DNA of 16,600 nt from the NCBI GenBank assembly GCA_029838215.1, contig JALGVI010000071.1, positions 1-16,600 on the forward strand. Reading direction: 5' to 3'. The position numbers and the translations under genes were made by a program. The notes beneath the pieces are model-generated. The model did not search any database. It saw nothing but the letters and a program-made list of their open reading frames with translations, and was not told the DNA's origin. The stretch comes from Candidatus Helarchaeota archaeon. GTDB taxonomy: Archaea; Asgardarchaeota; Lokiarchaeia; Helarchaeales; RDOG01. Within the stretch, counting starts at the first letter, position 1. Each line of letters begins with the position of its first letter. This document shows, piece after piece, positions 1 to 15,209 of the stretch.

Positions 1-204
1 TTTTTTTTTGTTTTCAAAAAATAGCTGCAGTTCGTCTAAAACTTGAAAATCTGTGAAGTTCTTCTTATCTAAACTTAACAAGTTGCAATTAAAAACCCAT
101 TCTTTTCATCAGCTATAATTATAAGTTTTAAAAGATTTTTATACAATTGTAGCTGGATGTGACCAAAATAACATGGTCATGATGCACGAAAAAACAGGTG
201 AAAG

Positions 205-792
205 ATGATTACGGGTCGCAAGACAATTGCCGTGGATAAAGAACTGGCAGAACGGTTAACGATTTTGGCAAAAAATGAAGGTAAAACAATATACTCGATC
301 ATTAATGAGCTGATTAAATCTGCTTTACACGCATCCGAAACTTTCAACGAATCTTGTACGGAAATCCTAAGTACATATGAAGATTTGATGATTGCCAGAG
401 ACATCGGTTTGAGTCTAATGCCCCAATCTGTCTCGGACATTGCCTATGCCGTGGCGTTTAAGGATGGTTATGGGAAGAACCTCATGTTCGAGTATAGCAA
501 GTGGGGAGAGTGGTTGGGCTCATATTTAAAGACACGATTCCCTGGTAAAGAATTAAAGGCTCTATTTCGGATTTCAAAGGTCATGTTTTGGAAAGATGCA
601 AATTTAGAATTTGAAAAAAATCCCGAGAACGATCCGCAGGAATTGGTAATCAAGATATACGGGTCGGCAGTAAAAAAGGAATACATATCCTGCATTGCCG
701 TTGCATTTGAAAAAATTCTTGAAGCCTTTGAATTTCATTTAACAAATAAAGATATTTTAAAGGGTATTTGCAAGCTCGAATTCAAGAAATGA
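205..792 (+). CDS. Ribbon-helix-helix (CopG-like) DNA-binding protein with an uncharacterised C-terminal alpha/beta domain (possibly V4R-like)
   Basis: The N-terminus RKTIAVDKELAERLTILAKNEGKTIYSIINELI fits the RHH beta-strand/helix/helix pattern. AGGTGA ribosome-binding site at 196-201, just before the ATG. The C-terminal domain assignment is inference only. Confidence 0.6.
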   Translation: MITGRKTIAVDKELAERLTILAKNEGKTIYSIINELIKSALHASETFNESCTEILSTYEDLMIARDIGLSLMPQSVSDIAYAVAFKDGYGKNLMFEYSKWGEWLGSYLKTRFPGKELKALFRISKVMFWKDANLEFEKNPENDPQELVIKIYGSAVKKEYISCIAVAFEKILEAFEFHLTNKDILKGICKLEFKK

Positions 793-869
793 ACGAGTTC
801 ATGATTTAAAAATTATTAAATAGGTGCTTTCTGAGTCACATCTTGAAAAGATTTTTTGGAAGTGGAACC

Positions 870-1166
870 GTGATTTTTATTTCGTTAATCAACATGAATG
901 AAAGCAAGCAAGAAGAAGCTTTCAAGTCGCTAGATGAAATTCAGAAACATCCCCCTGAGGGCGTTAATATCAAAGGGCTTTACTTCTTGTTGGGTGAATA
1001 TGATGCACTCTTAATGTTTGAAGCACCCACTCCTAATGCCGCATTAAAGCTTGCAGCAAAGATGACTTTATTTGGAAGTATTAAAACGTTGACCGCCGTT
1101 CCCTTTTCTGATTCAAAGGACGATTTAGAAGGCATCTATTGGTACAAAAAACTGGACAATATTTAA
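870..1166 (+). CDS. GYD domain-containing protein (small ferredoxin-like fold)
   Basis: The pattern FISLIN...GVNIKGLYFLLGEYDALLMFEAP...AA...GSIKTLTA is typical of GYD-domain proteins (GEYD motif). The ORF track starts at TTG 843; GTG 870, after GGAAGTGGA, fits the family length better. Its stop shares the TTAA at 1163-1166 with the convergent gene. Confidence 0.75.
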   Translation: MIFISLINMNESKQEEAFKSLDEIQKHPPEGVNIKGLYFLLGEYDALLMFEAPTPNAALKLAAKMTLFGSIKTLTAVPFSDSKDDLEGIYWYKKLDNI

Positions 1167-2314
1167 TTCAAAACTTGTTTTATTCGTTGAATTGCTTCTT
1201 TTAATGTTTCAACTGGTACTGTACATGCTATTCGGACGTATCCTTCACCTTCATTGCCAAATGCGTTACCGGGCACGACTGCCACTTTTGCCTTATAAAT
1301 GAGAAATTCTGAGAATTCGGTAGAATTCATGCCCGTTTCTTTTATGTTTGGAAACGCATAAAAAGCACCCTTAGGGCGAAAACAAGATATTCCTTCGAGA
1401 GAATTTAACCCTTCATGAATCACGTCCCTTCGTTTCTTGTATTCCTCACGAAGAGTGTCCTTGAATGACTTGACTTCCTTCAATGCTTTAATGGCTGCGA
1501 TCTGTGAAGCGGAATTTGCACAAGCCGTGTTCATCTGATGAACCACGTTCATTGAATTGATGAGATCTCGAGGGGCAAGGAGGTAACCCACTCGCCAACC
1601 CGTCATGCAATAAGTCTTCGAGAACGAATTAAGCACGATCGTCCTGTCTTGGACATCAAGACCAGCAAGGCAGACGTGTTTTTCATTGGTGTAATTTAAT
1701 ACTTCATATACTTCATCAGAAAGAATGAGTAAATCGTGATCCCGCGCGAGATCTGCCACGGCTTTCAATTTCTCTCGAGACATCACTGCACCTGTTGGGT
1801 TGCTGGGAAAATTCAAGATCAGCATTCTTGTATTTGGAGTGATCTTTTCTTTCAAGACCTCCACGTCAATTTCAAAATCATCTTCTTCCTTTAACGGTAA
1901 TCCAACGGTTTTGGCCCCCGTGATGAGAACCTGTCCCGAATAAGTTAGAAAACCCGGGTCGGGAATGATCACTTCATCACCCGGATCGAGCACGGCTTGA
2001 CAGGCTATGAAAAGACCTTCGACTCCCCCACACGTGACCATTATCTCCGATGATGCGTCATAATCAAGGTTGTATTCGTCCTTATACTTGTCGCTTATTG
2101 CCTGCCGCAATTCAATATAGCCCAAGTTTGGAGAATAAGATGTATAATTATCATCCAGTGCTTTTTTGGCGGCATCTTTGATTTCTTCTGGTGTATTAAA
2201 GTCAGGAGCTCCCAAACCCAGTGAGATCATGCCTTCCATGCTCTGTGCCAGGTCAAAGATACGTCGAATGCCGCTCGGTTTGATCTTTTCCAATTTATCA
2301 GCTCTTACTTTCAT
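1163..2314 (-). CDS. PLP-dependent class I/II aminotransferase (aspartate aminotransferase family)
   Basis: Motifs ISLGLGAPDF, YSPNLGYIELR, NFPSNPTG, SDEVY, NSFSKTYCMTGWRVGY (PLP lysine), GAFYAF, PGNAFG and GYVRI. Lies 15 nt downstream of aspartokinase with a GAGG/GGA ribosome-binding site. Confidence 0.93.
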   Translation of the reverse strand: MKVRADKLEKIKPSGIRRIFDLAQSMEGMISLGLGAPDFNTPEEIKDAAKKALDDNYTSYSPNLGYIELRQAISDKYKDEYNLDYDASSEIMVTCGGVEGLFIACQAVLDPGDEVIIPDPGFLTYSGQVLITGAKTVGLPLKEEDDFEIDVEVLKEKITPNTRMLILNFPSNPTGAVMSREKLKAVADLARDHDLLILSDEVYEVLNYTNEKHVCLAGLDVQDRTIVLNSFSKTYCMTGWRVGYLLAPRDLINSMNVVHQMNTACANSASQIAAIKALKEVKSFKDTLREEYKKRRDVIHEGLNSLEGISCFRPKGAFYAFPNIKETGMNSTEFSEFLIYKAKVAVVPGNAFGNEGEGYVRIACTVPVETLKEAIQRIKQVLN

Positions 2315-2329
2315 TCCGATTCCCTCACT

Positions 2330-3730
2330 CTAACCAATAAATTCTTCATGAATCGCAAGAATGGCTGCTGTCAGGTCCTTTTTTGGAACGAGTATGGAGA
2401 TGTTGATGCCTCCGCTGGCTTGTGATATCGCCAAAATCTGGATGTTAGTCAAAGCCGAAAAAACCCTCCCAAGAATGCCCGGCTGATTGAATCCTTCACC
2501 AATTATTGCTATTAAACCCACGTCCTCCACGGATATCTGAAACCATTTCGAAAAGAACGTATCTTCCTTGAGAAGCCTCATGGCATTCTCGCCGTTTTTT
2601 TTATCAACGACAAAGGTTGTATTGATTTCTGAAGAGGATTGAGAGACAAATGAAACATTTATGTTATTTTTCCCCATCAAGTCAAAGAGCTTGGCAAGAA
2701 CTCCGGGTTGGGATACGGTTGCTGCGGAAATTGCGGAAATCATTGCCACTTCCTTGAAAAAAGTAATCCCCTTGACGCTTAAAGTCGTATCGGGCTTTTC
2801 TTCAACAACCGTGTAACGCGTTTTTGTGAGATCTTCAAAATTTCGGAGTTCTACAACAATACCTTGCTTTTGAATGGGCGTGATGCACTTCGGATTGATG
2901 AGTTTCGCCCCAAAATAAGCAAATTCTTTCGCTTCAGAATAGGAAAGGTGTTCGATTAAACGGGCATTTGGGGCAATGTCAGGATGCGTGGTCAAAACAC
3001 CATCCACGTCCTTCCATAGAATTACCTTGACGAGATTTTCATCGTTTTTAAGACAGTGGGCGAGAATGGTGGCAGTAAAGTCCGTTCCACCACGACCCAA
3101 TGTCGTCACGTGTCCTTCAATATTGCGAGCCAAAAAACCCGTGACGACAGGAATCACGCCATCTTCTATCAAAGGCTTGACTTTCGCATTGATTTTCTGA
3201 CACGTGATGTCAAGAAGCGGAAGCGCATCATTATAAACGCTATCCGTCACCAAAAAATCGGTCGCAGGAACATACTTCACCTTGAACTTGTTCCCCTCTA
3301 AATACTTTGTCAAAAGAAATGTCGAAAGCATCTCTCCCTTCGAAATTATCTGGTCGATCTTGAAGGGTGAAATCTCAAATTCTTTAATATCATCAATCAT
3401 TGCTCGAATTGAGCTGATGTTATCCTCCAAGAAATCCTTGACCGCAATCTGAAATTTTTCTGGAATTACCTTCTCAATGGTTTCTTCGTGCTTGCGAATA
3501 ATTTCCAAGAGATATCCTTCAGGGTCTTCCTGACGACTTGCGGCACGCGCGCTATTCAATAAGAGATCTGTAATGCCCGAAAGAGCGGAAACCACGAAAA
3601 TCAATTGTTGTTCGGGATCTTCGCTCACGTATTTATTGATAACGTTAATTATTTGCGAAAAACTTTCAGGAGATCTAAGACAACTCCCGCCAAATTTCAT
3701 GATTGTCAATCGTTTCAAGAGACTCAACAC
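2330..3730 (-). CDS. lysC: Aspartate kinase with C-terminal ACT domains
   Basis: MKFGGSCL, VVSALSGITD, GEMLS, PVVTGF, TTLGRGGTDFTA, WKDVDGVLTTHP, LSYSEAKEFAYFGAKLINP, then ACT repeats (PGVLAKLFDLMGKNNINV; PGILGRVFSAL). Start could be GTG 3730 or TTG 3727. Confidence 0.93.
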   Translation of the reverse strand: MLSLLKRLTIMKFGGSCLRSPESFSQIINVINKYVSEDPEQQLIFVVSALSGITDLLLNSARAASRQEDPEGYLLEIIRKHEETIEKVIPEKFQIAVKDFLEDNISSIRAMIDDIKEFEISPFKIDQIISKGEMLSTFLLTKYLEGNKFKVKYVPATDFLVTDSVYNDALPLLDITCQKINAKVKPLIEDGVIPVVTGFLARNIEGHVTTLGRGGTDFTATILAHCLKNDENLVKVILWKDVDGVLTTHPDIAPNARLIEHLSYSEAKEFAYFGAKLINPKCITPIQKQGIVVELRNFEDLTKTRYTVVEEKPDTTLSVKGITFFKEVAMISAISAATVSQPGVLAKLFDLMGKNNINVSFVSQSSSEINTTFVVDKKNGENAMRLLKEDTFFSKWFQISVEDVGLIAIIGEGFNQPGILGRVFSALTNIQILAISQASGGINISILVPKKDLTAAILAIHEEFIG

Positions 3731-3795
3731 CGATTCCGTTAAAGCATGAAGCTATAAAATTCTTGAGTTTATGAGTTATATTTTTTTCATAATAT

Positions 3796-3817
3796 TATTT
3801 AAAAACACGTTTAAATA
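3796..3817. promoter_or_regulatory. Perfect 8-6-8 inverted repeat TATTTAAA-aacacg-TTTAAATA: back-to-back TATA boxes for the divergent lysC and PIN genes, and/or a TA operator
   Basis: Seen directly. The right arm TTTAAATA ends 18 nt before the PIN-gene ATG, roughly the archaeal spacing for a leaderless transcript. Confidence 0.5.
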
Positions 3818-3835
3818 CAATGTCGTACAGTACTA

Positions 3836-4330
3836 ATGTTGATGCTGAAGATAGACTCAAGTTCCTTGATATGCATAATAAAATTAAGACTTTTCGATTT
3901 ATTCACGAGATTATACAAAGAAATAATCATTTCACCAACTGTCAAAAAGGAAGTCGTTGATGATGGCTTATCAAGAGGAAAACCTGATGCCATAGTAATC
4001 CACCAACACATTCTTCAGAAAAGAATTCAAATTCATGAGCCTACCAATGTGATTCAAGATTTGAATTTGGGAATTGGTGAAACAGAAATCATTTCTCTTT
4101 CAATAGAAGAAAACTGTCCATGCATGCTAGATGATTCAAAAGCTCAAAGAATCGGAATAAGATTACAGGTAGATCTCAAATCTACACCCATATTTTTATT
4201 GGAGTTATTGAAAAATGGGTATTTGGACTCACAATCCTATGAATTTTACATTGATGAATATGGAAAAATGGTGAATCTATCTCAAAATGGAGTATGGTTT
4301 TATAAACAAGTAGGAAGTTTAATAAAGTGA
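3836..4330 (+). CDS. PIN-domain protein, DUF3368/COG2405 type (putative toxin)
   Basis: PIN acidic residues in KIDSSSLI, VKKEVV, LGIGETEIISL and MLDDSKAQRIG match the DUF3368 consensus (DTSPLI...VYEE...LGxGEAEAIAL...LIDDxxAR). Confidence 0.85.
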   Translation: MLMLKIDSSSLICIIKLRLFDLFTRLYKEIIISPTVKKEVVDDGLSRGKPDAIVIHQHILQKRIQIHEPTNVIQDLNLGIGETEIISLSIEENCPCMLDDSKAQRIGIRLQVDLKSTPIFLLELLKNGYLDSQSYEFYIDEYGKMVNLSQNGVWFYKQVGSLIK

Positions 4331-4665
4331 CTTCACTTTCAATCCGGACAGAAAAGGAAATTATTGAAGAACTTGATCGGCTAGCAAAACTTCAAAATCT
4401 TGATCGGACTTCAATTGTAAAAAAGATATTAAAAAGGGGAATTGAAGAAGAAAAACTCGAGCTTGCAATTGCATTATATCTTAAAGGGCAAACTATTGGA
4501 AGATCAGCTGATATCTCGCAATGTAATTTTTGGGATTTATTGGACGAATTAAAGAAACGAGGAATCATGAAACATTTCGATCTAGATGCTGAAAAAGAAA
4601 TCATTCTCGATACTATAGCCAAAGATGATCAAAACCTCAGAAAAAGGATACTCGAGATGAAATAA
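4327..4665 (+). CDS. UPF0175-family antitoxin with an N-terminal RHH domain
   Basis: TSLSIRTEKEIIEELDRLAK...DRTSIVKKIL (RHH), followed by AIALYLKGQTIGRSADISQCNFWDLLDELKKRGI (UPF0175 HTH). The GTG start overlaps the PIN stop (GTGA), indicating translational coupling. Confidence 0.85.
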   Translation: MTSLSIRTEKEIIEELDRLAKLQNLDRTSIVKKILKRGIEEEKLELAIALYLKGQTIGRSADISQCNFWDLLDELKKRGIMKHFDLDAEKEIILDTIAKDDQNLRKRILEMK

Positions 4666-4705
4666 AATTCTTAAACAATATCACGTCGATAATGGAATGA
4701 TGTCA

Positions 4706-4713
4706 TTTTTTTT
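4706..4713 (+). terminator. Possible archaeal oligo-T terminator after the TA operon
   Basis: T8 run about 40 nt after the antitoxin stop codon. Confidence 0.35.
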
Positions 4714-4749
4714 AGCAGGCTTGATTGAGAAAAATTCGAAGGTTTTGCC

Positions 4750-5643
4750 ATGAAATTTCCATTTAAATTTTCAAAATTGGTATTATATGTCTTATTATTT
4801 CTTGCATTTTATGCAATGGGTGTTTTTTTACCCGACTTGCTATTTGGAAATGCCACGGCTGCTGATGGCTCCGTAAACACCCAAGCACAAGTATTAATGT
4901 TCTTGATTTGGGTTCCGGTTCAGGAGCAACATGTCATATTTCCGCTTTTTATTCACGCAAGCACGTTGTTCGAGTTCTTAATTCCCATTTTAAGCATTCC
5001 TCCATTATTTTATTTCATTCATGGGGAAGTCACGGGAATGCCGACTTACAAGAGCGAACAATCAAGGTATAAGAAGCCATTGGAGTGGATGTTTTGGATT
5101 TTTCTAGGGTTGTTCATGGTCGCTCAGGGAATGAGATATGTAGCCGATGCCATTGACACGATGATAGACGTGAAGCCCATCGACATTAACATTAACATTA
5201 CAAACCCAAATCTAAGCCTTCATCTTGCAAAACTGGCAGCATATTATTTCGACGAGTTTCTCTCACATAAGATTCTTTATTCGGCAATTGTTGGAATAAT
5301 GATCGTGTTAACTTGCTTGCAATACGTATTCGAAAAAGATGAGGATGACCGGCTCGAAAATCAAATCGTGTTGCTCTTACTCGGCGTGATTTTTGGAATC
5401 GCATTCGGTTTTGCCTTGATGGAGGGTCAAGCCGCATTCGAATTTGTAATCGTCACGTTCATTGCAACAATAGGGGTTATTGCATTTAGCTTTTTAAAAT
5501 TTGAAGGGGATTTTAGACGAGTTCCGATGTTCCTGTTCAGTGCAGGAATGTTTGCCGCTACATCATTTACTGTTCTCATCAGCGGTGTGGTATTTGCATT
5601 GACTGGACAAATATCAATGGTGTACCCGTTTTTCCCCCAATAA
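4750..5643 (+). CDS. Polytopic membrane protein (about 7-8 hydrophobic segments), CLN6-like
   Basis: Strongly hydrophobic 297-aa ORF. The ordered motifs VADAID, YYFDEFLSH (aa165-173), EGQ (aa225-227) and FLFS (aa261-264) correspond to VGDSVN, YYYDEYLGH, EGQ and FLFS of human CLN6 as recalled from memory. The CDS is high confidence; the family call is moderate. Confidence 0.7.
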   Translation: MKFPFKFSKLVLYVLLFLAFYAMGVFLPDLLFGNATAADGSVNTQAQVLMFLIWVPVQEQHVIFPLFIHASTLFEFLIPILSIPPLFYFIHGEVTGMPTYKSEQSRYKKPLEWMFWIFLGLFMVAQGMRYVADAIDTMIDVKPIDININITNPNLSLHLAKLAAYYFDEFLSHKILYSAIVGIMIVLTCLQYVFEKDEDDRLENQIVLLLLGVIFGIAFGFALMEGQAAFEFVIVTFIATIGVIAFSFLKFEGDFRRVPMFLFSAGMFAATSFTVLISGVVFALTGQISMVYPFFPQ

Positions 5644-5657
5644 AAAGGAGATTGAAA

Positions 5658-6467
5658 ATGCCATACATGGAACTTTCACACGTGAAGATGTTTTACATTG
5701 ACGAAGGTGATGTTGATGCCCCTGTCATTACCATGATCCATGGATGGACCGAATCGCACAAGTTTTGGGAAGAACAAGTCAATTTTTTTAAGGAAGATTA
5801 TCGAGTGATTGCGCTGGATTTAAAAGGACACGGACGCTCTACGAAGCGGCGACATGGATATCTCATGCGAAATCTATCAAATGACGTGTTTGAACTCTTG
5901 CACAAATTGGATGTAACTCGCACGATCATGTTTGGACATTCTCTTGGGGGCATGGTGACGCTGGACTTCTATTTTCGACGCCCATTGCAAGTCGATGCCA
6001 TCTGTTTGTTTAATACTACCTACAAGCAGTTCTCACTCATCCCGCGAAATTTCACGGAGCTAAGAGGTGCGGGACTTTTCGGCATACGTAAATTCCTACT
6101 ACAATTCTATGATTTCAAGCCCGAAGAAATCGTAAACCTATCTCAACGCAAAAAAGATAATGTCGAAGAATTAATAGAAGAAGCCAGTCGAACACCACCA
6201 TACATTACCGTGCGGTTAGGACTTGCTTCTACGAATTTTAATGTTGAAAGAAAGCTTCCGAGAATTAAAGTCCCTACGTTGCTAGTCTATGGTGAACGCG
6301 ACGCCGTCACACCCGTCCGAATCGGACGAAGCATGCAACGCAAGATTCCAAATTCAACTCTCTATGTCGTGAAAAATTCCGGACACATGGCACCTCTTGA
6401 AAAATCGGAAGAGGTAAATGCCGCCATCGCGGATTTCTTGGAAAAAAATGGATTAAAAAGGCACTAA
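5658..6467 (+). CDS. Alpha/beta-fold hydrolase (esterase/lipase-like)
   Basis: Oxyanion HGW, DLKGHGRS, nucleophile elbow GHSLGG, acid in VYGERDAVTP, catalytic His in SGHMAPLE. GGAG at 5647-5650 favours ATG 5658 over TTG 5652. Confidence 0.92.
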   Translation: MPYMELSHVKMFYIDEGDVDAPVITMIHGWTESHKFWEEQVNFFKEDYRVIALDLKGHGRSTKRRHGYLMRNLSNDVFELLHKLDVTRTIMFGHSLGGMVTLDFYFRRPLQVDAICLFNTTYKQFSLIPRNFTELRGAGLFGIRKFLLQFYDFKPEEIVNLSQRKKDNVEELIEEASRTPPYITVRLGLASTNFNVERKLPRIKVPTLLVYGERDAVTPVRIGRSMQRKIPNSTLYVVKNSGHMAPLEKSEEVNAAIADFLEKNGLKRH

Positions 6468-6488
6468 TTCAACAATTTCTTGCCTATT

Positions 6489-7997
6489 CTAGAAAAAGTT
6501 AAAGATCTTTGGAAGATCTCCTACTTCTTTTCTGAACTTTTTGGGCCAATTATCCGGGTCCAAACCTTTTTGTGCCAGGAAGGCAACACTCCATCGTTCC
6601 AACCCGATACCCGAGCAACCTGACCATAAATCCAATCTTTGTGCCTTTATGTTAAACGCCTTCGTATATTTATCTCCAACGATTGACAGGTTCTGAAATT
6701 CGAGCCATTCACTATCTTCTCTTGTTCCACGATACGGAAGGTATGCTTCAAAATCAATAGTTCCCTTGATTCTTTGTTTGGCATCATCCAATTCCAAGAT
6801 TCCCGAGTGTTGCAAGTAGAACGGCGTTACCCAAGCCATTCTCCACTCCAGATCTAAAATATCATTAAAAATATATTTGTATTTTTCAATTATCTTGTCC
6901 TTAACTTCAACTAATTGTTCCATCGTTCCGATATACACTAATTCCATGCGGTGAAACTCATCCATCCTTTCGATACCGTGGCGTCCTCCGCTTTCATAGC
7001 GGTTGCTGACAGCGCTCCGATCATATACAAGGATGGGAAATTGATCATCACCTATCGTCTTGCCGGAGAAAAACTCATAGATATTTGGACATTGAACATA
7101 ACAATTTATTGCATTTGGAGGGGAAAGCAATTTTGATAATTCTTCATGTGGTACTTCCCTTGAAATTTTTAAATAATCTATGAACGTTTCCCATTCTTCG
7201 GGATTTCGCGTCTTAGGCTCGCACACGTAATATACTTCCATTGGAACGCCTTCAAGATGACCCGTCTTAAGCAGGGTGCTGAAAGATTCGTGATGCGGTT
7301 CAATGACCTCTTGAAATCCAAGAGGCTTGATGATTTCTCTTTTAACAATCTGTTCCATCGCACGAATGATCTTCGTGATTTGGGGACCAAAGAACCACTT
7401 GCCTTTCGTTCGACCTAACTGTAGCCACCCTTTTTCCACCATGACCCTGCTCGGATCCTCGTTCCAAATTGGTTCTTTCTTTTCCGATGCCCATAAAATC
7501 TCGGCAAATTCACCCTTGCCTGCATAATACTGCTGGTCAATTTTTTCCCTGATTCGCCTCACTATTCTATTCACGAAATTCTTCTTGACAAAGCTCTCCT
7601 CCAGCGGTTTCGAAAACGTTATTTCAAACTTGTCCTCATCAAGCTTGAAATCGTCCACGTAAGGTATCGTGAAATCGTGCAATGGGCTCTTTTCCAAGCC
7701 GAATTGTAACTTGTAATGCGAAACAACGACCTTCTTGACCGTAAGACGATGTTTTTTCCCGAAATTTTGATTGAGCTTGTTCCGAAGTTGAAAGAGAACT
7801 GCGTGAGGAAAACCGGTATCATAGAAGATTTCGAGTTTTAGTTTATCCTTTTCGTGAGAAACCGTGAATTTCATGTCTTTTTGTGCGTGCTTTTTCTCAA
7901 GCCCTGTTTTGAACTCGTCCAAAAATTGTTTGATCTCTTTGATCTGTGCCGAAATGTCTTTATTAAAGAGAAATTCTGCTTTTAATGTCGAAGGCAT
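6489..7997 (-). CDS. serS: Seryl-tRNA synthetase, type 2 (methanogen-type, zinc-dependent)
   Basis: 502 aa with a large N-terminal tRNA-binding domain. Motif 2 is RYESGGRHGIERMDEFHRMELVY and motif 3 is WSGCSGIGLERW. Cys303 (VQCPNIY), Glu352 and Cys461 match the Cys/Glu/Cys zinc ligands of Methanosarcina SerRS. Family-typical C-terminal AQKGLDPDNWP. Confidence 0.92.
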   Translation of the reverse strand: MPSTLKAEFLFNKDISAQIKEIKQFLDEFKTGLEKKHAQKDMKFTVSHEKDKLKLEIFYDTGFPHAVLFQLRNKLNQNFGKKHRLTVKKVVVSHYKLQFGLEKSPLHDFTIPYVDDFKLDEDKFEITFSKPLEESFVKKNFVNRIVRRIREKIDQQYYAGKGEFAEILWASEKKEPIWNEDPSRVMVEKGWLQLGRTKGKWFFGPQITKIIRAMEQIVKREIIKPLGFQEVIEPHHESFSTLLKTGHLEGVPMEVYYVCEPKTRNPEEWETFIDYLKISREVPHEELSKLLSPPNAINCYVQCPNIYEFFSGKTIGDDQFPILVYDRSAVSNRYESGGRHGIERMDEFHRMELVYIGTMEQLVEVKDKIIEKYKYIFNDILDLEWRMAWVTPFYLQHSGILELDDAKQRIKGTIDFEAYLPYRGTREDSEWLEFQNLSIVGDKYTKAFNIKAQRLDLWSGCSGIGLERWSVAFLAQKGLDPDNWPKKFRKEVGDLPKIFNFF

Positions 7998-8203
7998 CGA
8001 AATCCCAATCCAATTTAACGTTTAATCATGAATACATGTCTTTAATGAAGGATAAAATTGCATTTAATGATAGAGATCAAAAACAATTTAGATATAAATA
8101 TACGTGGGATGTACTTTAGCCCGCTCGAACATGAGAAACGTATTTAAGATTTCAAAAAGAAATAAAAAGCATTAATAATGAGACTAACCACGCGGTGAAA
8201 AAA

Positions 8204-8818
8204 ATGTCTGAATTAACCAAGGCAGCAGTTGAGTTAGAAGAAGACCAAGTCTTGAATCTCGTAAAGGATAGATTGGCAAAAAATTCGGATGAAGGCTTGC
8301 AAATCGTTGAAGAATTGCGTGAAGCAATGAACATAATCGGAAAGCGCTTTGAAGAGCAGGAATATTTCTTGAGCGACCTTGTCTTTGCTGCAGAGATATT
8401 CGAGAACGCCATTAAAATAATTCGACCATACCTGAAAACAGAAACGCAAAAACTGGGGAAGGTTCTCATCGGCACGGTTCAAGGAGACATTCACGACATA
8501 GGAAAAAGCATTTTGGGGTCCCTGCTGGAGTGTGCGGGATTCGAAGTAATTGATCTCGGCGTAGACCAACCGATCCAGAACTTTATTGAAGCAATCAAAA
8601 AGGAAAACCCCGACATCATCGGTCTGTCCACGTTACTCACGATAGGATTCGACTCAATGAAAAAAACAATTGAGGAAATTCGAAAAGTAACTGAAAAAAA
8701 GATCATCATTGGCGGCGGAGTGATCAACCAGGATTGGTGCGACCAAGTCAAGGCTGACCTGTGGGCAAAAGATGCAATGGACGGCGTCAATAAAATAAGA
8801 GAATTATTGGATGTCTAA
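8204..8818 (+). CDS. Corrinoid (cobalamin-binding) protein, MtbC/MttC/MetH-cap type
   Basis: N-terminal B12-binding_2 cap (MNIIGKRFEEQEYFLSDLVFAAEIF), then GTVQGDIHDIGK (DxHxxG base-off His ligand), GFEVIDLGVD, IIGLSTLLT and IIGGG. GCGGTGA ribosome-binding site favours ATG 8204; the ORF track uses GTG 8195. Confidence 0.92.
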   Translation: MSELTKAAVELEEDQVLNLVKDRLAKNSDEGLQIVEELREAMNIIGKRFEEQEYFLSDLVFAAEIFENAIKIIRPYLKTETQKLGKVLIGTVQGDIHDIGKSILGSLLECAGFEVIDLGVDQPIQNFIEAIKKENPDIIGLSTLLTIGFDSMKKTIEEIRKVTEKKIIIGGGVINQDWCDQVKADLWAKDAMDGVNKIRELLDV

Positions 8819-8819
8819 C

Positions 8820-8826
8820 TTTTTTT
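8820..8826 (+). terminator. Possible oligo-T terminator after the corrinoid gene
   Basis: T7 run immediately after the TAA. A CGAGAAA/TTTCTCG hairpin follows at 8840-8862, inside the 3' end of the convergent gene. Confidence 0.3.
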
Positions 8827-8831
8827 TCTAA

Positions 8832-9758
8832 TTACTCGACGAGAAAAGGGAATTCTTTCTCGAATTTTTCAGAAATGAGTGTCGCGGGAAATACGCCTAC
8901 TTCCGTTATGAGGCTGGCGATTAGGTCGTGTGAGATCGTTTCGAAAGCAGGATTCAACAACTTTACACCCTTTGGAGGATCATCCCATATTTCTCCTACC
9001 GGTCTCATCTCGATTGTTTCCAAGTTTCCAAGTAGAGAATCGGGATTGTATTTGAGAATCGTGGTGACGACATAAAGCGGAATGTGGTTTTCATGTGCCA
9101 TCAATCCGAGAAGGCGTGAGCCGATCTTGTTGAAAACAGTTCCTTCTGCCGTAATGGAGTCTGCTCCAATTAAAATTAGATCAATTTTATTCTTAAAATG
9201 CTTGACAACCCATCGCATCGCGCTATCAACGATGTGGGTAACCTGTATTCCGTGTTCGGCCAACTCTCGAGCCGTGATTCGACCTTGAAATAGAGGTCTC
9301 GTTTCGGTATTTATGACCTCGAGTTTTTTTGTCTTTTTTGCTTCGATTATAATCTGCGTGACCGCAGATGAGTGACAATGCGTGAAAATGAGTGAGTCAT
9401 CAGGAATGCGCTTTGCACCGATTTGCGCAATTTTAAATTTGGCAGATCGTAATAATTCAATATATTCCTCAGTATATGTCATGATTAATGATTTGGCTTC
9501 TTCTACGTCCGTCGCTTCAGCCAGCCTTGCTTTTTTAATGGCATACTTCAAACCATTCCTCAAGCAAGGTTCGGTCACACGGCTGTATTCTAAAATTCTT
9601 CTTGAATCCTCGATTTTTTGAAAGAATTCCTTGACACTTGATGCTTTTAGTGAACCAGCATGATCCCCAAGTGCTTTTACCCCTGCAAGAGCCACGTTTG
9701 TAGCACCTTGAATTTCTAATTTCTTGATTTTTTCAGCCACATCTTGTATTTTTTCCAT
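8832..9758 (-). CDS. eIF-2B alpha/beta/delta-family sugar-phosphate isomerase, most like ribose-1,5-bisphosphate isomerase
   Basis: IQGA, THCHS (catalytic Cys128), TETRP..QG, VDSA, GADSIT (catalytic Asp200), NKIGS and NPAFE align with Thermococcus R15P isomerase motifs. The ATG lies 1 nt after the nagB-fusion stop. Confidence 0.85.
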   Translation of the reverse strand: MEKIQDVAEKIKKLEIQGATNVALAGVKALGDHAGSLKASSVKEFFQKIEDSRRILEYSRVTEPCLRNGLKYAIKKARLAEATDVEEAKSLIMTYTEEYIELLRSAKFKIAQIGAKRIPDDSLIFTHCHSSAVTQIIIEAKKTKKLEVINTETRPLFQGRITARELAEHGIQVTHIVDSAMRWVVKHFKNKIDLILIGADSITAEGTVFNKIGSRLLGLMAHENHIPLYVVTTILKYNPDSLLGNLETIEMRPVGEIWDDPPKGVKLLNPAFETISHDLIASLITEVGVFPATLISEKFEKEFPFLVE

Positions 9759-9759
9759 T

Positions 9760-11595
9760 TTACAACCTTCTTTTTACTTTAAATGATTCTGCATGACAAA
9801 ACTCTTGAATCAGACCAAGCTTCAATAATTCCTCACCCAATTGTCGATTTCGATCTTCAGCTCGCTTCCAAAAAGGACGCAGATCGTCTCCCGGAAACAG
9901 CGGGTCCAGTTGAGACACGTGTTCCTTGATGGCTTTCAACTTGAGATCCATTATTTCTTTGTCAAAACAATAAATTAAATCAATCTCATGTAATGAATAA
10001 TCATTCCAAGCTCCACGATAATACCATGAATCGAAGGTAAAATCGAGATTCTTGGTGGCGAGCTCGAAAATCTGAAGAACCTTTCCATGGGTACCATGCG
10101 GATCTTCGCGTTCCTTATTTACAATTATGATATCCGGCTTAAATGACAGGAGTTCATCATGTAGAAGAGAAATATCCCTTGAAGAAATTATAGATTTTCT
10201 TATTTTTCCATCAATGAAAATTCTCTCATTATAGAACGGACAATCCAGAAAAATTAAATTTTCAGGAGCAATTCCTATTATCTTTACAGCATTCGTGGCT
10301 TCGATCTCTCTCATTCGCTTTTTTAACATCATGACTTGAGTCATTTCTTGCTCACTTAAAGCATCAGGTTTCTCATTAAGCTTCTTCAATAGAGAAGTCA
10401 GTCGAGAATCACTCTTATAGAAATTCATGATGTCTGAATTTTTAACGGCGTTCACGCCGCTCACCATGTAGCACACGCGTAATTCGTTGAATTGGTTCAA
10501 GAGATTCATCGTGGCGCCCAAACAAATGACATCATCGTCTGGATGTGGAGATATGATAAAAATTCTCTGATTTTTTGGACAGGAATTCTCGTCCATCAGT
10601 TTCGCTCTCATCATTGATACACACAGATCATTCAATTCTTTCAAGCTTTGGTAATTATTAACCAAGTCTTCAAGATGGTGCGCTATAAAATCATCTCTTG
10701 TCAATCCTGTAATGGGTTTCCCTGTTTCGCTTGCAAGCCAAATCACGGCTGCCATGATCAGGTTCTTATTGCTCCAATCTATTCTATCTGTATAAATCCA
10801 CGGCCTGATCATTCGGGAAAGTTTTGAAGCGGCATGTCGATCAATCATGATCGTGAGATCGGGATGCTTTTTCAAGTAACTGGCTGGAACGTCGGAAGTT
10901 ATTTCTCCTTCAATGACGATCTTCATGACTTCTGCCTTATGCTCACCGGAAGCTAAAAGCAGGACTTTTTTGGCTTCAAGGATCGTTCCAATTCCCATTG
11001 AGATTGAATATTTGGGCACTTCATCCAAAGAACCGAAAAATCGTGAGTTATCTTCCCGCGTTTTTTCTGTTAATTCAACTTTCCTAGTTCGTGAATCAAT
11101 GGACGACCCTGCCTCATTAAAGCCGATATGACCACCGCGTATTTTCCCGCCTTCATAATAGGACGCACCAATGCCAAGAACTTGGAGATCAATTCCTCCT
11201 GCAGCAACAATCTCATTTTCATATTGCTTGCAATATCTAGTTAGTTGACTCTCGGGAATTTCACCATCAGGCACGTGCCTGTTTTTTTCAGGAATGTTTA
11301 CATGGCGAAAAAACCAGAAGTCCATGTAATAATTATAACTTTGGGGACGTGATTTTGGCATGGGATAATATTCATCGAGATTAAAAGTCGTGACTCGTGA
11401 AAAATCCAATCCCTCTTCCACGTGTAGACGAACCAATTCCTTATACATGCTGATTGGCGTGCTTCCTGTTGGAAGACCTAAAACGCTATCGGGCTTTCTC
11501 CTGATCTGGTCCGCCACAATTCCTGCCGCTTTTTTCCCCAATTCGTCATCATTTTCCACGATGATCAATTTGAAATCCTGATTTTTTTCAGTCAA
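9760..11595 (-). CDS. nagB: Glucosamine-6-phosphate deaminase (NagB) fused to a C-terminal PIG-L/LmbE-type deacetylase domain
   Basis: LGLPTGSTP, TTFNLDEY, GIDLQVLGIG, GHIGFNE, SISMGIGTIL, LLASGEHKA and VPASYL (NagB). Then ISPHPDDDVI, RMREIE..A and DPHGTH (PIG-L metal motifs). TTG start with GGAAG upstream; an in-frame TGA at 11614-11616 excludes a longer start. Confidence 0.88.
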   Translation of the reverse strand: MTEKNQDFKLIIVENDDELGKKAAGIVADQIRRKPDSVLGLPTGSTPISMYKELVRLHVEEGLDFSRVTTFNLDEYYPMPKSRPQSYNYYMDFWFFRHVNIPEKNRHVPDGEIPESQLTRYCKQYENEIVAAGGIDLQVLGIGASYYEGGKIRGGHIGFNEAGSSIDSRTRKVELTEKTREDNSRFFGSLDEVPKYSISMGIGTILEAKKVLLLASGEHKAEVMKIVIEGEITSDVPASYLKKHPDLTIMIDRHAASKLSRMIRPWIYTDRIDWSNKNLIMAAVIWLASETGKPITGLTRDDFIAHHLEDLVNNYQSLKELNDLCVSMMRAKLMDENSCPKNQRIFIISPHPDDDVICLGATMNLLNQFNELRVCYMVSGVNAVKNSDIMNFYKSDSRLTSLLKKLNEKPDALSEQEMTQVMMLKKRMREIEATNAVKIIGIAPENLIFLDCPFYNERIFIDGKIRKSIISSRDISLLHDELLSFKPDIIIVNKEREDPHGTHGKVLQIFELATKNLDFTFDSWYYRGAWNDYSLHEIDLIYCFDKEIMDLKLKAIKEHVSQLDPLFPGDDLRPFWKRAEDRNRQLGEELLKLGLIQEFCHAESFKVKRRL

Positions 11596-11655
11596 GTTTA
11601 AACTTCCATGCGATCATCATTCGTGAACATCATGCCTTGCTTGAAAATAAGTAAG

Positions 11656-11670
11656 TTTTAATAATTAAAA
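11656..11670. promoter_or_regulatory. Perfect palindrome TTTTAAT-A-ATTAAAA between the divergent nagB-fusion and GHMP kinase genes (bidirectional TATA or operator candidate)
   Basis: Seen directly, near the middle of the 149-bp divergent intergenic region. AT-rich palindromes arise easily by chance. Confidence 0.35.
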
Positions 11671-11744
11671 AGATCCTCTAATTCGTTTATAGCCACCATG
11701 AACAATTTCAAAAAATCAAAATCCGGCATTTTAGTTAGATCACG

Positions 11745-12809
11745 ATGTTAGAAGTCAGCACTCCCGGAAGGATCTGCCTATTTGGCGAAGATCTGGACTA
11801 CATGGGATTAAACGTCATCACGGCTGCGATAAATCTACGAATGCACGTTAGAGGCGATTTTTCAGATGATGATTTCATCACGATTTATTTCAAGGATCTT
11901 GATGAACGGGATAGATTCCGGATAAACCAGCCCGCCCCTTATCGAAAAAAGCGCGATTACATTCGTGCCGCAACAAATGTCCTGAATCGCAAGGGATATG
12001 AGATAAATCGCGGCATAAAAGCCACGATCTGGAGTGAAATTCCAATAGGGAGGGGGCTATCGAGTTCTTCTGTATTAACCATTTCGTGGATTGCATTTGT
12101 GAATGAATTGTTTGAATTCGGGTTGACAAAGAAGGAAATTGCAGAGCTCGCATATCAATCTGAAGTTGTTGAGAATAATGAATCAGGAGGGAACATGGAC
12201 CATTATGCCTGTTCATTGGGAAATGGAATGCACCTGAATTGCTCCACTCATGACGTCAAAATACTCGAATTAAACCACCTTGCGGACTCAATAGTTATCG
12301 CCGATACTAAAATCATAAAAAAAGAACTCGTACACGGCGAGCGCAAGAAAAACATCATTGAAGGTCTTGAGTGGTTCTCCAAATTCGTGGATTTTGATTT
12401 AAAAAACACGTGTTGCGAAGATTTGGAACCGTTTTTTTCAAAAATACCTCCAATTCCTTTAAAACATGCCCGAGCAATCCTCCGGCTTCGAGACATCACG
12501 AATGAAGCTGAAAAAGTCTTGTCAAGACCAGAAAGCGATCCTGAAAAACTCGGTCGTTTATTCGATGAATTTCACCATGAACTCGTGAGAGGATTTGACA
12601 ACAGTACCGAAATGACCGAAAAAATCATTCTGGAAGCAAAAAAGGCAGGGGCTTTAGGAGGAAAAATATTGGGTTCGGGTTTTGGCGGCTGCGTACTATT
12701 GTACTGTCCTGGAAAACAAAAAGAAGTTTCCGAAGCCGTAAAAAAAAGTGGTGGCGAACCATACATCGTGTGCATTGATGAAGGAATTCGAATCGAGCAC
12801 GAAGATTAG
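11745..12809 (+). CDS. GHMP-family sugar kinase (galactokinase-like), substrate uncertain
   Basis: PGRICLFGEDLDY (galactokinase signature-like), ATP loop PIGRGLSSSS, catalytic GGNMDHY, C-terminal GALGGKILGSGFGGC. Confidence 0.88.
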   Translation: MLEVSTPGRICLFGEDLDYMGLNVITAAINLRMHVRGDFSDDDFITIYFKDLDERDRFRINQPAPYRKKRDYIRAATNVLNRKGYEINRGIKATIWSEIPIGRGLSSSSVLTISWIAFVNELFEFGLTKKEIAELAYQSEVVENNESGGNMDHYACSLGNGMHLNCSTHDVKILELNHLADSIVIADTKIIKKELVHGERKKNIIEGLEWFSKFVDFDLKNTCCEDLEPFFSKIPPIPLKHARAILRLRDITNEAEKVLSRPESDPEKLGRLFDEFHHELVRGFDNSTEMTEKIILEAKKAGALGGKILGSGFGGCVLLYCPGKQKEVSEAVKKSGGEPYIVCIDEGIRIEHED

Positions 12810-12813
12810 GCAT

Positions 12814-14805
12814 TCACAGCGTTTTTTTTGCCTTTTTGTTGGAAAATGCAATCCGAAAGCTGTTTAGAATTACAAATAAAGAAACGCCGAAGTCGCCAAT
12901 CCCAACTGCAATCCATAGAGTCATCAAGCCGAATATTGCTAAGATTAAGAATAGAAATTTTACGGCTACTGCAATGATGATGTTTTGTCTAATTATGGAT
13001 AGTGTTTTTTTAGAGATATTCAAGAGCGTGGTGAGCGAGCCGAGGTTATCGTTAATCAAAACGATGTCTGATGTTTCCAAGGTAACATCACTTCCCGTTC
13101 CTCCCATGGCAATGCCAACAGTCGCCGTTGCGAGTGCAGGCGCATCATTCACTCCATCACCTACCATGATCACGTTTTCACCCCGTGACATCATGTCCTT
13201 TATGAACTGCTGCTTTTCGTGAGGTTTTAGTTCCGAGTGTCCTTCATCAATATCAAGTCTCTGTTTAAGTGCTTCTACGGTTTGCGCGTTATCTCCGGAT
13301 AAGACCATGGTTTGCATGCCCTTCTTCTTGAGATCATGAATGACTTCTCTTGATTCGTCCCGCAACTTGTCTTGGAGCGTGATGATGCCCAAACTAGCCT
13401 TGTCTGACCCGAAAAGCACGACCGTTTTTCCCGCTTGTTCCAAAGAAGCCATCTGTTTTTCGGGAATCTGCACCCCCAACTCACGAAACAGTGCTTTATT
13501 GCCCAAATAATATGTCTTGCCGTCATGTTTCCCCGTCACTCCACTTCCTGCTATCCCCTTGAAGTCCGTGATTTGAACCGGCTCCACGTGCATGTTCGTC
13601 AATTCATTAACAATGGCTTTAGAAATGGGGTGTTCTGATAATGATTCCAATCCTGCAACCAGCCTTAACCAGTAATCTGAGTGATCGGTCAGATCAATCA
13701 GGTCCTTCACTTGCAACGTCCCCCTTGTAAGCGTGCCCGTCTTGTCGAAGACAATAACTCTTGGGTCATTTAATAACTCAACGTATTTCCCACCCTTTAT
13801 CACGATTCCATTTTTTGCACCGCTGGTCAATGCCGTGACCATTGAAATGGGCGTCGACAAAACCAAAGCACATGGACAGGAAATGACCAGAAGCATTAAT
13901 CCTCGATAGAGCCATTGATCCCATAAAAAAGGGTTTAATATAGTTGGAATTATTATGAAGAGTGCCGCCATTGTAATGACAATGGGCATGTAATATTTTG
14001 CAAACTTATCCACGAATTTTTCCGTTTCAGACTTATTTGATTTGGCTTCCTTGATGGTTTCCTCGATTTTTGCGAGTAACGTATTTTTGGCTCCTTTGGA
14101 AACCTCCACCTCAATGTAACCTTCGTTATTAATGGTCCCTGCATAGACTTCATCACCGATTTGCTTGTAAACGGGAACCGCTTCTCCCGTCAGGGTAGAC
14201 TCATTAATGCTCGTGCTTCCCGAAGCGATGATGCCATCCAATGGAATGTTTTCCCCGGGCTTGATCTGAATGATCGAACCGATCTTGACATTGTGAGTGT
14301 GGAGTTCCTCAAATGACCCATTAACCTTCACCATTGCTGTTTCAGGAATGAGTTTCACGAGCGACTTGATGGACTTTTTGGAGCGATCGCCCGCATATTC
14401 TTCCAAAAATTCTGCAATGAAAAACAAAAACATCGCAGCCGCTCCTTCGCTTCCATGACCAATTATAAAAGAACCAATCGCTGCAATCGTCATTAAAAGA
14501 TTGATCGAAATTCGCTTTTCCAATACCTTTTCAATGCCTTCTTTAGCAATTTCAAATCCGCTGATGGACGCCGTGAGCAAGGCAAAAATCTGCCCCCAAA
14601 TAAAGATGAAAAAGGCAGGCTGAACAGCACCCGCTGATTCGACAAACTGTGAAAAGAAATCCAACGCGATCGCAGGAATGAGAAATAATCCCGAAAAAGC
14701 AATCATCAAACCAATTTTTAGCCGCTCGAATTTTTCTTCTTTATCGTCTTCTTCAAGCTCGAGCTGACAAATTTCGCAAGCACCCGACAAGTGGTATTCA
14801 CCCAT
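12814..14805 (-). CDS. Heavy-metal-translocating P1B-type ATPase, P1B-2 (Zn/Cd/Pb) subtype
   Basis: LTGEA (TGE), CPC in the metal-binding helix, DKTGTLT phosphorylation site, SEHP, SGDN, GDGVNDAP. The C-terminal helices carry the P1B-2 signatures T-x5-QN-x7-K (KTLSIIRQNIIIAVAVK) and D-x-G-x7-N (GDFGVSLFVILN). Confidence 0.93.
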   Translation of the reverse strand: MGEYHLSGACEICQLELEEDDKEEKFERLKIGLMIAFSGLFLIPAIALDFFSQFVESAGAVQPAFFIFIWGQIFALLTASISGFEIAKEGIEKVLEKRISINLLMTIAAIGSFIIGHGSEGAAAMFLFFIAEFLEEYAGDRSKKSIKSLVKLIPETAMVKVNGSFEELHTHNVKIGSIIQIKPGENIPLDGIIASGSTSINESTLTGEAVPVYKQIGDEVYAGTINNEGYIEVEVSKGAKNTLLAKIEETIKEAKSNKSETEKFVDKFAKYYMPIVITMAALFIIIPTILNPFLWDQWLYRGLMLLVISCPCALVLSTPISMVTALTSGAKNGIVIKGGKYVELLNDPRVIVFDKTGTLTRGTLQVKDLIDLTDHSDYWLRLVAGLESLSEHPISKAIVNELTNMHVEPVQITDFKGIAGSGVTGKHDGKTYYLGNKALFRELGVQIPEKQMASLEQAGKTVVLFGSDKASLGIITLQDKLRDESREVIHDLKKKGMQTMVLSGDNAQTVEALKQRLDIDEGHSELKPHEKQQFIKDMMSRGENVIMVGDGVNDAPALATATVGIAMGGTGSDVTLETSDIVLINDNLGSLTTLLNISKKTLSIIRQNIIIAVAVKFLFLILAIFGLMTLWIAVGIGDFGVSLFVILNSFRIAFSNKKAKKTL

Positions 14806-14825
14806 ATATCAAATGTTAATACCCC

Positions 14826-14833
14826 TTTTAAAA
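14826..14833 (-). promoter_or_regulatory. TATA box (TTTTAAAA) for a probably leaderless P1B-ATPase transcript
   Basis: Lies 21-28 nt upstream of the ATG at 14805, with no ribosome-binding site in between. Confidence 0.45.
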
Positions 14834-15209
14834 TTTTGGTACAAACACGAAAATCTATTAAGAAACGCAACTAAATTATCCGCAAGTTATTAAATTTTTG
14901 CCCTGAGTTATTAAAACCTACTAAAATTTCGAAAAAATTTATTATCAAGATGATAACAAGATTCGTTTTTCACTGAGAACTAAAAATCAAAATGTCGCAA
15001 GCTTTTAGAATATAAAACATAACTCAAACCGTGCAAAAACCTGACCCAACCACGCCTTCAATTCTCAAAAATGATCGTTAAATGCTTCGAAAATTCATCA
15101 ATTGCCAAGCATCTTCTTGTTCGAGTAATTGTTTAATAAAAAGAAATCATTCCAACCTAGAAAATTAATTCATTATTGTTTAAGGCAAAAATCATTTCGG
15201 TGAAAACAC

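Follow-up and report, generated by a model that had tools for sequence, protein, structure and literature searches.

A divergent CLN6-like membrane protein of a Helarchaeota archaeon belongs to a family spread across bacteria and archaea

Does an Asgard archaeon encode a relative of CLN6, the Batten-disease protein, and is that relative a eukaryotic signature protein? The question was raised by a gene on a 16,600-nucleotide stretch of a Candidatus Helarchaeota archaeon genome (GenBank assembly GCA_029838215.1, contig JALGVI010000071.1, positions 1 to 16,600), which is called the window here. The gene occupies an open reading frame (ORF) at positions 4750-5643 of the forward strand, extends from ATG to TAA over 297 codons and encodes a 297-residue membrane protein designated P0001. 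An initial annotation had matched this protein to human CLN6, proposed an invariant polar site and suggested a eukaryotic signature protein. P0001 is a divergent variant of an enzyme family that has since been characterised. With moderate confidence, it is read as a divergent Asgard branch of a CLN6-homologous family that extends across prokaryotes. By analogy with CLN6, it would act as a seven-helix, outward-facing, metal-dependent enzyme with a histidine nucleophile on a glycerophosphodiester. The Asgard-to-eukaryote signature, the claim that would have been major, was not supported.

CLN6 was an orphan protein until October 2026, and the earlier statement that its molecular activity is unresolved is outdated. 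Two preprints of 9 October 2026 (bioRxiv 10.64898/2026.10.07.757477 and 10.64898/2026.10.07.757350) established it as a Ca2+-dependent glycerophosphoglycerol epimerase. The purified human protein converts R,S- to S,S-glycerophosphoglycerol and is the enzyme of the endoplasmic reticulum (ER) for the synthesis of S,S-bis(monoacylglycero)phosphate (BMP). In one preprint of the pair, the patient variant H127Y was inactive and R62H gave no rescue. Rescue also failed for mutants of D173, E174 and H178 and for Y182A/Y223A, which was examined only as a double mutant. In the other, D59A, D131A, D173A, E174A, H178A and E227A were inactive, the N-terminus was cytosolic and the C-terminus luminal, and a homodimer was modelled. 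The same preprint proposed, from combined quantum and molecular mechanics, that His178 forms a phospho-histidine that is then attacked by the other primary hydroxyl of the glycerol, so that a 1,3-phosphoryl migration would take place with a Ca2+ ion on either side. Bacteria and archaea are mentioned in neither preprint, and no paper connecting CLN6 with Asgard archaea was found in the literature.

Homology to CLN6 and the catalytic core

The gene is real, since its relatives keep the full length of P0001, related sequences were recovered with phmmer and the AlphaFold2 (AF2) model is confident. Full length was kept in relatives with 52%, 41% and 39% identity, and 25 relatives were found at E <= 0.001 among 1.8 billion representatives. 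A GAAGG motif lies about 7 nt upstream of the ATG. All motifs claimed for the protein were located at the residues and nucleotides given for them: FMVAQGMRYVADAID at residues 122-136, AAYYFDEFLSHKILY at residues 163-177 with YYFDEFLSH at 165-173 (nt 5242-5268), EGQ at residues 225-227 (nt 5422-5430) and PMFLFSA at residues 259-265. Their order and spacing had been compared with human CLN6 strings. The residue numbers published in the preprints (H127/D131, D173/E174/H178/Y182 and Y223/E227) fit the same spacing. The features are collected in Table 1.

Table 1. Coordinates of the CLN6-like gene, its mapped active-site positions and the adjoining gene in the window
Feature	Position	Strand	Basis
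CLN6-like seven-helix membrane protein P0001, 297 aa	4750..5643	+	ORF; AF2 model; family homologous to PF15156
D29 at the outer end of helix 1, which may correspond to human D59	4834..4836	+	Invariant in close clade; global hhalign to P0032 D27
R129-Y-V-A-D133, helix 3, corresponding to human H127...D131	5134..5148	+	Alignment columns, 74 members
YYFDEFLSHKILY: D168, E169, H173 and Y177, corresponding to human D173, E174, H178 (proposed phospho-His nucleophile) and Y182	5242..5280	+	D/E/H invariant in 74/74
F221...E225-G-Q227, corresponding to human Y223...E227	5410..5430	+	E in 71/74, Q in 55/74
Alpha/beta-fold hydrolase, probably co-transcribed with P0001	5652..6467	+	Pfam Abhydrolase_1, E 2e-26

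The relationship to CLN6 was visible at the level of the family. An alignment of 74 members (A4) was assembled from Asgard loci found by genome search, 40 loci from one-genome-per-species contigs and library matches for the rest. In member-by-member Pfam scans, the CLN6 family PF15156 was matched at E <= 0.01 by 26 of the 74. These matches were collinear and covered profile positions of about 110-257, and no other Pfam family was matched by more than two members. The bacterial member P0032 (L052:2857-3678) scored 76.4 bits against PF15156 (E 3e-21, profile positions 3-250 of 280) and carried the same family in precomputed annotation. Among short-type Asgard members, L015 reached 28.9 bits, above the 27-bit cut-off, and L007 reached 26.1 bits. 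Profile-profile comparison agreed. A 16-row profile of the Asgard clade of P0001 aligned with P0032 alone over 113 columns (hhalign probability 83.7%, E 8e-6) and with a 21-row bacterial profile led by P0032 over 196 columns (99.8%, E 7e-28). Reversed P0032 gave 0.13% and E 0.45 as a control, and shuffles gave nothing. The ESM Atlas cluster nearest to P0001 was bacterial, with PF15156 on 12% of its members. In shape, the P0001 model matched bacterial 'hypothetical' clusters with a TM-score of 0.67 by query and 0.83 by match over 226 residues.

The residues that form the Ca2+ site and nucleophile of CLN6 are kept in P0001 as D168, E169 and H173 and were invariant across the alignment, and Y177 keeps the pocket tyrosine Y182. 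E225 was replaced by glycine in one close relative. The polar site proposed by the initial annotation (D133, D168, E169, H173, E225 and Q227) was therefore right for the most part and is borne out by the recent mutagenesis of the human enzyme: the first five residues match the essential D131, D173, E174, H178 and E227 of CLN6, but E225 and Q227 were not strictly invariant. The column of D131 held Asn in 68 of 74 members and Asp in only six, including the clade of P0001. In the column of H127, His was present in 60 members and Arg in eight, P0001 among them; the Arg recurred in a second Asgard clade (L002, L004, L005, L009 and L011). D29 is the probable counterpart of D59, but this assignment is uncertain because MAFFT aligned the N-terminal region of P0001 differently from the global hhalign comparison.

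The direct comparisons of P0001 weigh against the CLN6 reading. Searched against PF15156, it gave no match even at E <= 10 and so did not reach the 27-bit gathering score, and a six-frame Pfam search of the source genome gave no PF15156 match. Direct queries of Pfam, NCBIfam and PDB sequences returned nothing meaningful, and pairwise BLASTP with P0032 was not significant (E 0.07). The comparison with eukaryotic CLN6 was made through the preprint residue numbers, motif spacing and P0032 as a proxy, with no authentic eukaryotic CLN6 sequence or model directly compared. Word-index searches with P0001, alignment A2 and P0032 found only prokaryotic or unnamed proteins and no eukaryotic CLN6, and no relative of P0032 emerged when metagenomes were scanned with it. 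These missing direct matches would be expected if the resemblance were a chance likeness of hydrophobic multipass proteins. That explanation is highly improbable, given the collinear PF15156 matches of 26 relatives, the coincidence of the conserved polar residues with sites defined by mutagenesis and the clean hhalign controls. The claimed homology thus held through family members and profile-profile comparison and failed for a direct Pfam match of P0001. Transitive and profile evidence supports it, and P0001 is very probably a true homologue of CLN6.

A GPCR-type (G protein-coupled receptor) relation was also considered and rejected. The clade members P0005 (24.3 bits) and P0002 (15.8 bits) gave weak matches to the rhodopsin-family profile 7tm_1. 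Both were below its cut-off of 30.5 bits, no other member of the 74 matched, and the signal was probably compositional.

Fold model and proposed reaction

The AF2 model of P0001, calculated from a 22-row alignment, had a mean predicted local distance difference test score (pLDDT) of 91.4 and a predicted template-modelling score (pTM) of 0.88. It comprised seven long helices (residues 9-32, 70-95, 108-138, 155-193, 202-225, 229-251 and 259-284) and a beta-hairpin at residues 50-69. As read from the sequence, Lys and Arg were concentrated in the N-terminus (K2, K6 and K9) and in loops 96-109 and 251-257, with few or none in loops 33-69, 139-154 and 225-229 and in the C-terminal tail. From this distribution a topology with the N-terminus inside and the C-terminus outside is predicted, which would place every conserved polar residue of the model in the outer half of the membrane. 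Two of the loops predicted to face outward contained N-x-T sequons, NAT at residues 34-36 (4849-4857) and NIT at residues 149-151 (5194-5202), which are possible N-glycosylation sites.

P0001 probably forms a homodimer, as judged from structure prediction. A two-copy run gave an interface score (ipSAE) of 0.82, and the best of three controls gave 0.00. In calibration, 20 of 30 proteins solved as one-chain pairs attained this ipSAE mark, as did one of 23 with a single-chain structure. At least 97% of contacts were common to the runs, with a partner pLDDT of at least 85. The predicted dimer was symmetric, and its interface was formed by helices 3 and 4 together with the hairpin and the YPFFPQ tail. 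R129, D133, D168 and H173 were absent from the listed interface residues and are therefore not predicted to be buried there. Foldseek found no PDB match for the model at E <= 0.001. The best VIA-align result among 48,161 chains had a Z of 8.2 across 90 residues, a background level among helical proteins, and the family profile found no CLN6 chain among PDB sequences. Since the PDB copies searched held no CLN6 structure, the dimer prediction is not the recall of a solved complex.

By analogy with CLN6, P0001 would have a carboxylate-rich cavity open to the cell exterior, which is topologically equal to the ER lumen. Divalent cations bound by D168, E169, D133 and E225 would surround the phosphate group of a glycerophosphodiester. 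H173 would then act as the nucleophile on the phosphorus and become covalently phosphorylated, and resolution of this phospho-histidine by a second hydroxyl would lead to phosphoryl migration or transfer. An active phosphodiester isomerase or transferase with a metal-dependent histidine nucleophile is thus reasonably probable by this analogy. That P0001 is specifically a glycerophosphoglycerol epimerase is doubtful. The source genome encodes a GDPD glycerophosphodiesterase, which indicates that the organism handles glycerophosphodiesters. A search for glycerol-3-phosphate dehydrogenase (PF01210) gave weak, generic Rossmann-type matches and was uninformative.

Further points on the opposing side came from the substrate contacts and the genome. 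The substrate-binding H127 of CLN6 is not kept, with R129 in its place, and the pocket tyrosine Y223 is replaced by F221. R62 has no clear equivalent; the global hhalign alignment with P0032 placed F32 at its position, in a region that MAFFT aligned differently. CLN8 and CLN5 follow CLN6 in BMP synthesis, and in the 94.3%-complete source genome no match was found to CLN8 (TLC, PF03798), nor to CLN5 (PF15014) in a search that had no positive control. The adjoining hydrolase has no signal or membrane segment and would act on the opposite side of the membrane. Across about 57 loci of the family no gene neighbour was conserved, so no pathway was indicated. BMP is not known to occur in archaea.

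The changed residues also bear on the proposal that P0001 is catalytically dead or a regulatory paralog. The source genome encodes a second CLN6-like protein, P0010 (G000:C83:22058-22852, L053:3059-3859), which is 30% identical to P0001, falls in the same Asgard clade, keeps all core residues and carries His and Asn in the helix-3 motif. P0010 would then perform the chemistry, with P0001 pairing with it or sensing a ligand, and the essential human His127 is indeed Arg in P0001 and His in P0010. This proposal is very unlikely. The D/E/H core, D133, E225 and Y177 are all kept, relatives at 52% and about 40% identity are full-length, and the recurrence of the Arg in the second Asgard clade points to selection on an Arg-bearing form; Arg can bind phosphate. 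As a separate observation, the P0010 gene lies between genes for indolepyruvate-oxidoreductase-like and flavodoxin-like proteins and near genes for small Ras/Arf-like GTPases.

A more serious, still tentative alternative is that P0001 is a true CLN6 homologue with a different reaction. It might be a phosphodiesterase, or a transferase of glycerophosphate or head groups that works at the outer face, either on the head groups of archaeal membrane lipids or on glycans or polymers of the envelope. The His-plus-metal chemistry would be kept, without stereo-inversion of free glycerophosphoglycerol. The altered contacts at H127, Y223 and R62 fit this alternative, as does the failure to find CLN8 and CLN5, and the more canonical P0010 leaves room for specialisation. 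In one further clade member, P0007 (L059:3486-5183), genes for BacA (undecaprenyl-diphosphatase) and then a PAP2 lipid phosphatase lie downstream in the same orientation, and both proteins act on lipid phosphates at the membrane. This neighbourhood is a single case, however, and no part of the metal and nucleophile core is lost. The data were equal for transfer to water or another acceptor and for intramolecular migration. The Arg-for-His and Phe-for-Tyr replacements, together with a canonical paralog, suggest a shifted specificity. Because of both replacements, the unmatched Arg62 and the lack of a detected CLN8 or CLN5, the substrate of P0001 probably differs from the mammalian one.

Distribution and origin of the family

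Within the Asgard sample, the phylum of the window, the distribution was patchy: 48 of the 301 genomes carried a family member, and these came from 25 of the 71 genera. The closest named relative of P0001 originated from a Helarchaeota metagenome-assembled genome (MAG). Sequences of other members of the phylum were identical to named ones of Hodarchaeota, Promethearchaeota and Baldrarchaeum, which makes the host an Asgard archaeon. Outside the Asgards, at least eight bacterial phyla carried CLN6-like relatives. Chloroflexota were represented by many, and further members were found in Actinomycetota, Thermodesulfobacteriota, Cyanobacteriota/Melainabacteria, Gemmatimonadota, Bdellovibrionota, two lineages of the candidate phyla radiation and a gammaproteobacterium. 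Non-Asgard archaea with the family were Woesearchaeota and Halobacteria. The CLN6 family is therefore not confined to Asgards and eukaryotes, and the suggestion of a eukaryotic signature protein falls because the family is also present in bacteria, Woesearchaeota and Halobacteria.

Asgard proteins scored no better against the CLN6 model than a bacterial one. Asgard members reached at most 29 bits and proteins of the P0001 type had no score, compared with 76 bits for the bacterial P0032. Only one of the 301 Asgard genomes passed the PF15156 cut-off, with 27.4 bits. In a careful maximum-likelihood tree, P0001 belonged to an Asgard-only clade. P0032 had a very long branch and joined the metagenomic proteins P0013 and P0014 outside the Asgard clade with 99/90 support.

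These results bear on the possibility that eukaryotic CLN6 descends specifically from the clade of P0001, which would make P0001 a eukaryotic signature protein after all. The five-member clade has Asp at the D131 position, where 68 of the 74 members have Asn. Grouping the eukaryote-type P0032 with the 17-row Asgard clade by constraint was not rejected against a quick tree (p-AU 0.75 in the approximately unbiased test), although the groups were named after the tree had been seen and the value is indicative only. The careful tree surpassed the constrained one by about 14 log-likelihood units. P0032 itself has Asn in the D131 column, and the family tree, which includes no eukaryotic sequence, does not show where eukaryotic CLN6 arose. 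Considering also the wide occurrence of the family and the low Asgard scores, such descent is improbable.

P0032 is genuinely bacterial, as its gene is located among mrdA (PBP2), rodA, mltB-like and rlpA-like genes on a contig of an uncultured gammaproteobacterial MAG. Since only one of 350 genomes sampled from its class had a P0032-like protein, the gene may have been acquired by transfer from a eukaryote.

The prokaryotic family is useful for structural and mechanistic work because it keeps the catalytic core defined by mutagenesis. Its small, intron-free proteins lend themselves to structure determination and to work on the proposed phospho-histidine mechanism of CLN6, a protein for which the PDB copies searched contained neither a solved structure nor a significant fold match. 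It also separates universal residues (the Asp, Glu and His of DExxxH and the EGQ Glu) from the lineage-variable His127, Asp131 and Tyr223, which aids the reading of patient variants. The distribution raises the question of what a CLN6-type enzyme does in organisms not known to make BMP. One far-reaching and unlikely answer is that the prokaryotic family moves phosphate between the glycerol ends of a phosphodiester, setting or inverting the stereochemistry of lipid head groups at the outer face, and that eukaryotic CLN6 possibly came from the Asp-bearing Asgard clade. If true, lipid handedness would be changed after synthesis in prokaryotes, including archaeal relatives of eukaryotes, which would bear on the lipid divide between archaea and bacteria.

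Gene neighbourhood and comparison with known systems

The CLN6-like gene is followed by the hydrolase gene of Table 1. The likely true start of the hydrolase is ATG 5658, behind GGAG at 5647-5650, and the gap between the two genes comprises 8-14 nt. No NCBIfam equivalog scored over its cut-off for the hydrolase. The order aminotransferase, aspartokinase, CLN6-like protein and hydrolase was also present in the 52%-identical relative L054. The hydrolase pairing was confined to this closest relative and was not family-wide. Other clade members had other neighbours, in one case an ATC-hydrolase-like gene and acetyltransferases.

A putative toxin-antitoxin pair (3836-4665, forward strand) is located between the aspartokinase and the CLN6-like gene. 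It comprises a 164-aa protein without a Pfam match and then a UPF0175-family protein, with an overlap of 4 nt. The pair was absent from the syntenic relative L054, and a Baldrarchaeum MAG carried a homologous putative pair (L042:4998-5865) in the vicinity of its CLN6-like gene. On the reverse strand, positions 6489-7997 encode a seryl-tRNA synthetase of the rare methanogen type with tRNA_bind_4 and class II core domains. It scored 477 bits with NCBIfam PRK00960, under the cut-off of 611 bits. At 9760-11595, also on the reverse strand, a 611-aa fusion combines glucosamine-6-phosphate deaminase-like and PIG-L (N-acetylglucosaminyl-phosphatidylinositol de-N-acetylase) domains. It passed the cut-off of NCBIfam NF002557 and adjoins a gene for an eIF-2B-family protein similar to ribose-1,5-bisphosphate isomerase.

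Compared with its relatives, P0001 stands apart in several features. P0010 of the same genome is shorter (266 aa), has the helix-3 His and Asn found in most of the family and lies in another genomic context. Membrane proteins of 230-250 aa from Chloroflexota, Actinomycetota and others, named 'hypothetical protein' in the ESM Atlas, resemble P0001 in their fold and in the family motifs GxGxHxxxN, YFYDExLGH and EGQ. They are shorter, lack the hairpin insert, end in a QPSE-type instead of a YPFFPQ tail and have His and Asn where P0001 has Arg and Asp. P0032 belongs to the same family, aligns collinearly over the full length in the global hhalign comparison and has DExxxH and EGQ in common with P0001. 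It differs by an identity of about 21% and by Gln and Asn in the H127 and D131 columns.

Relative to human and vertebrate CLN6, P0001 falls below the Pfam threshold and shows Arg for His127, Phe for Tyr223 and no clear equivalent of Arg62. It has an extra loop of about 20-25 residues with a beta-hairpin after helix 1 (residues 33-69) and is without the long cytosolic N-terminus. Neither CLN8 nor CLN5 was detected in its host, from which BMP synthesis is not known. Alike in both are a length of about 300 residues and seven helices, with the N-terminus inside and the C-terminus outside or luminal, a topology that is predicted for P0001. For both, a homodimer is predicted, each dimer being a model, and the conserved site is placed on the luminal or extracellular face. 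CLN6 and P0001 share DExxxH with a Tyr four residues past the His, the Asp of helix 3 and EGQ, and these motifs agree in order and are similarly spaced.

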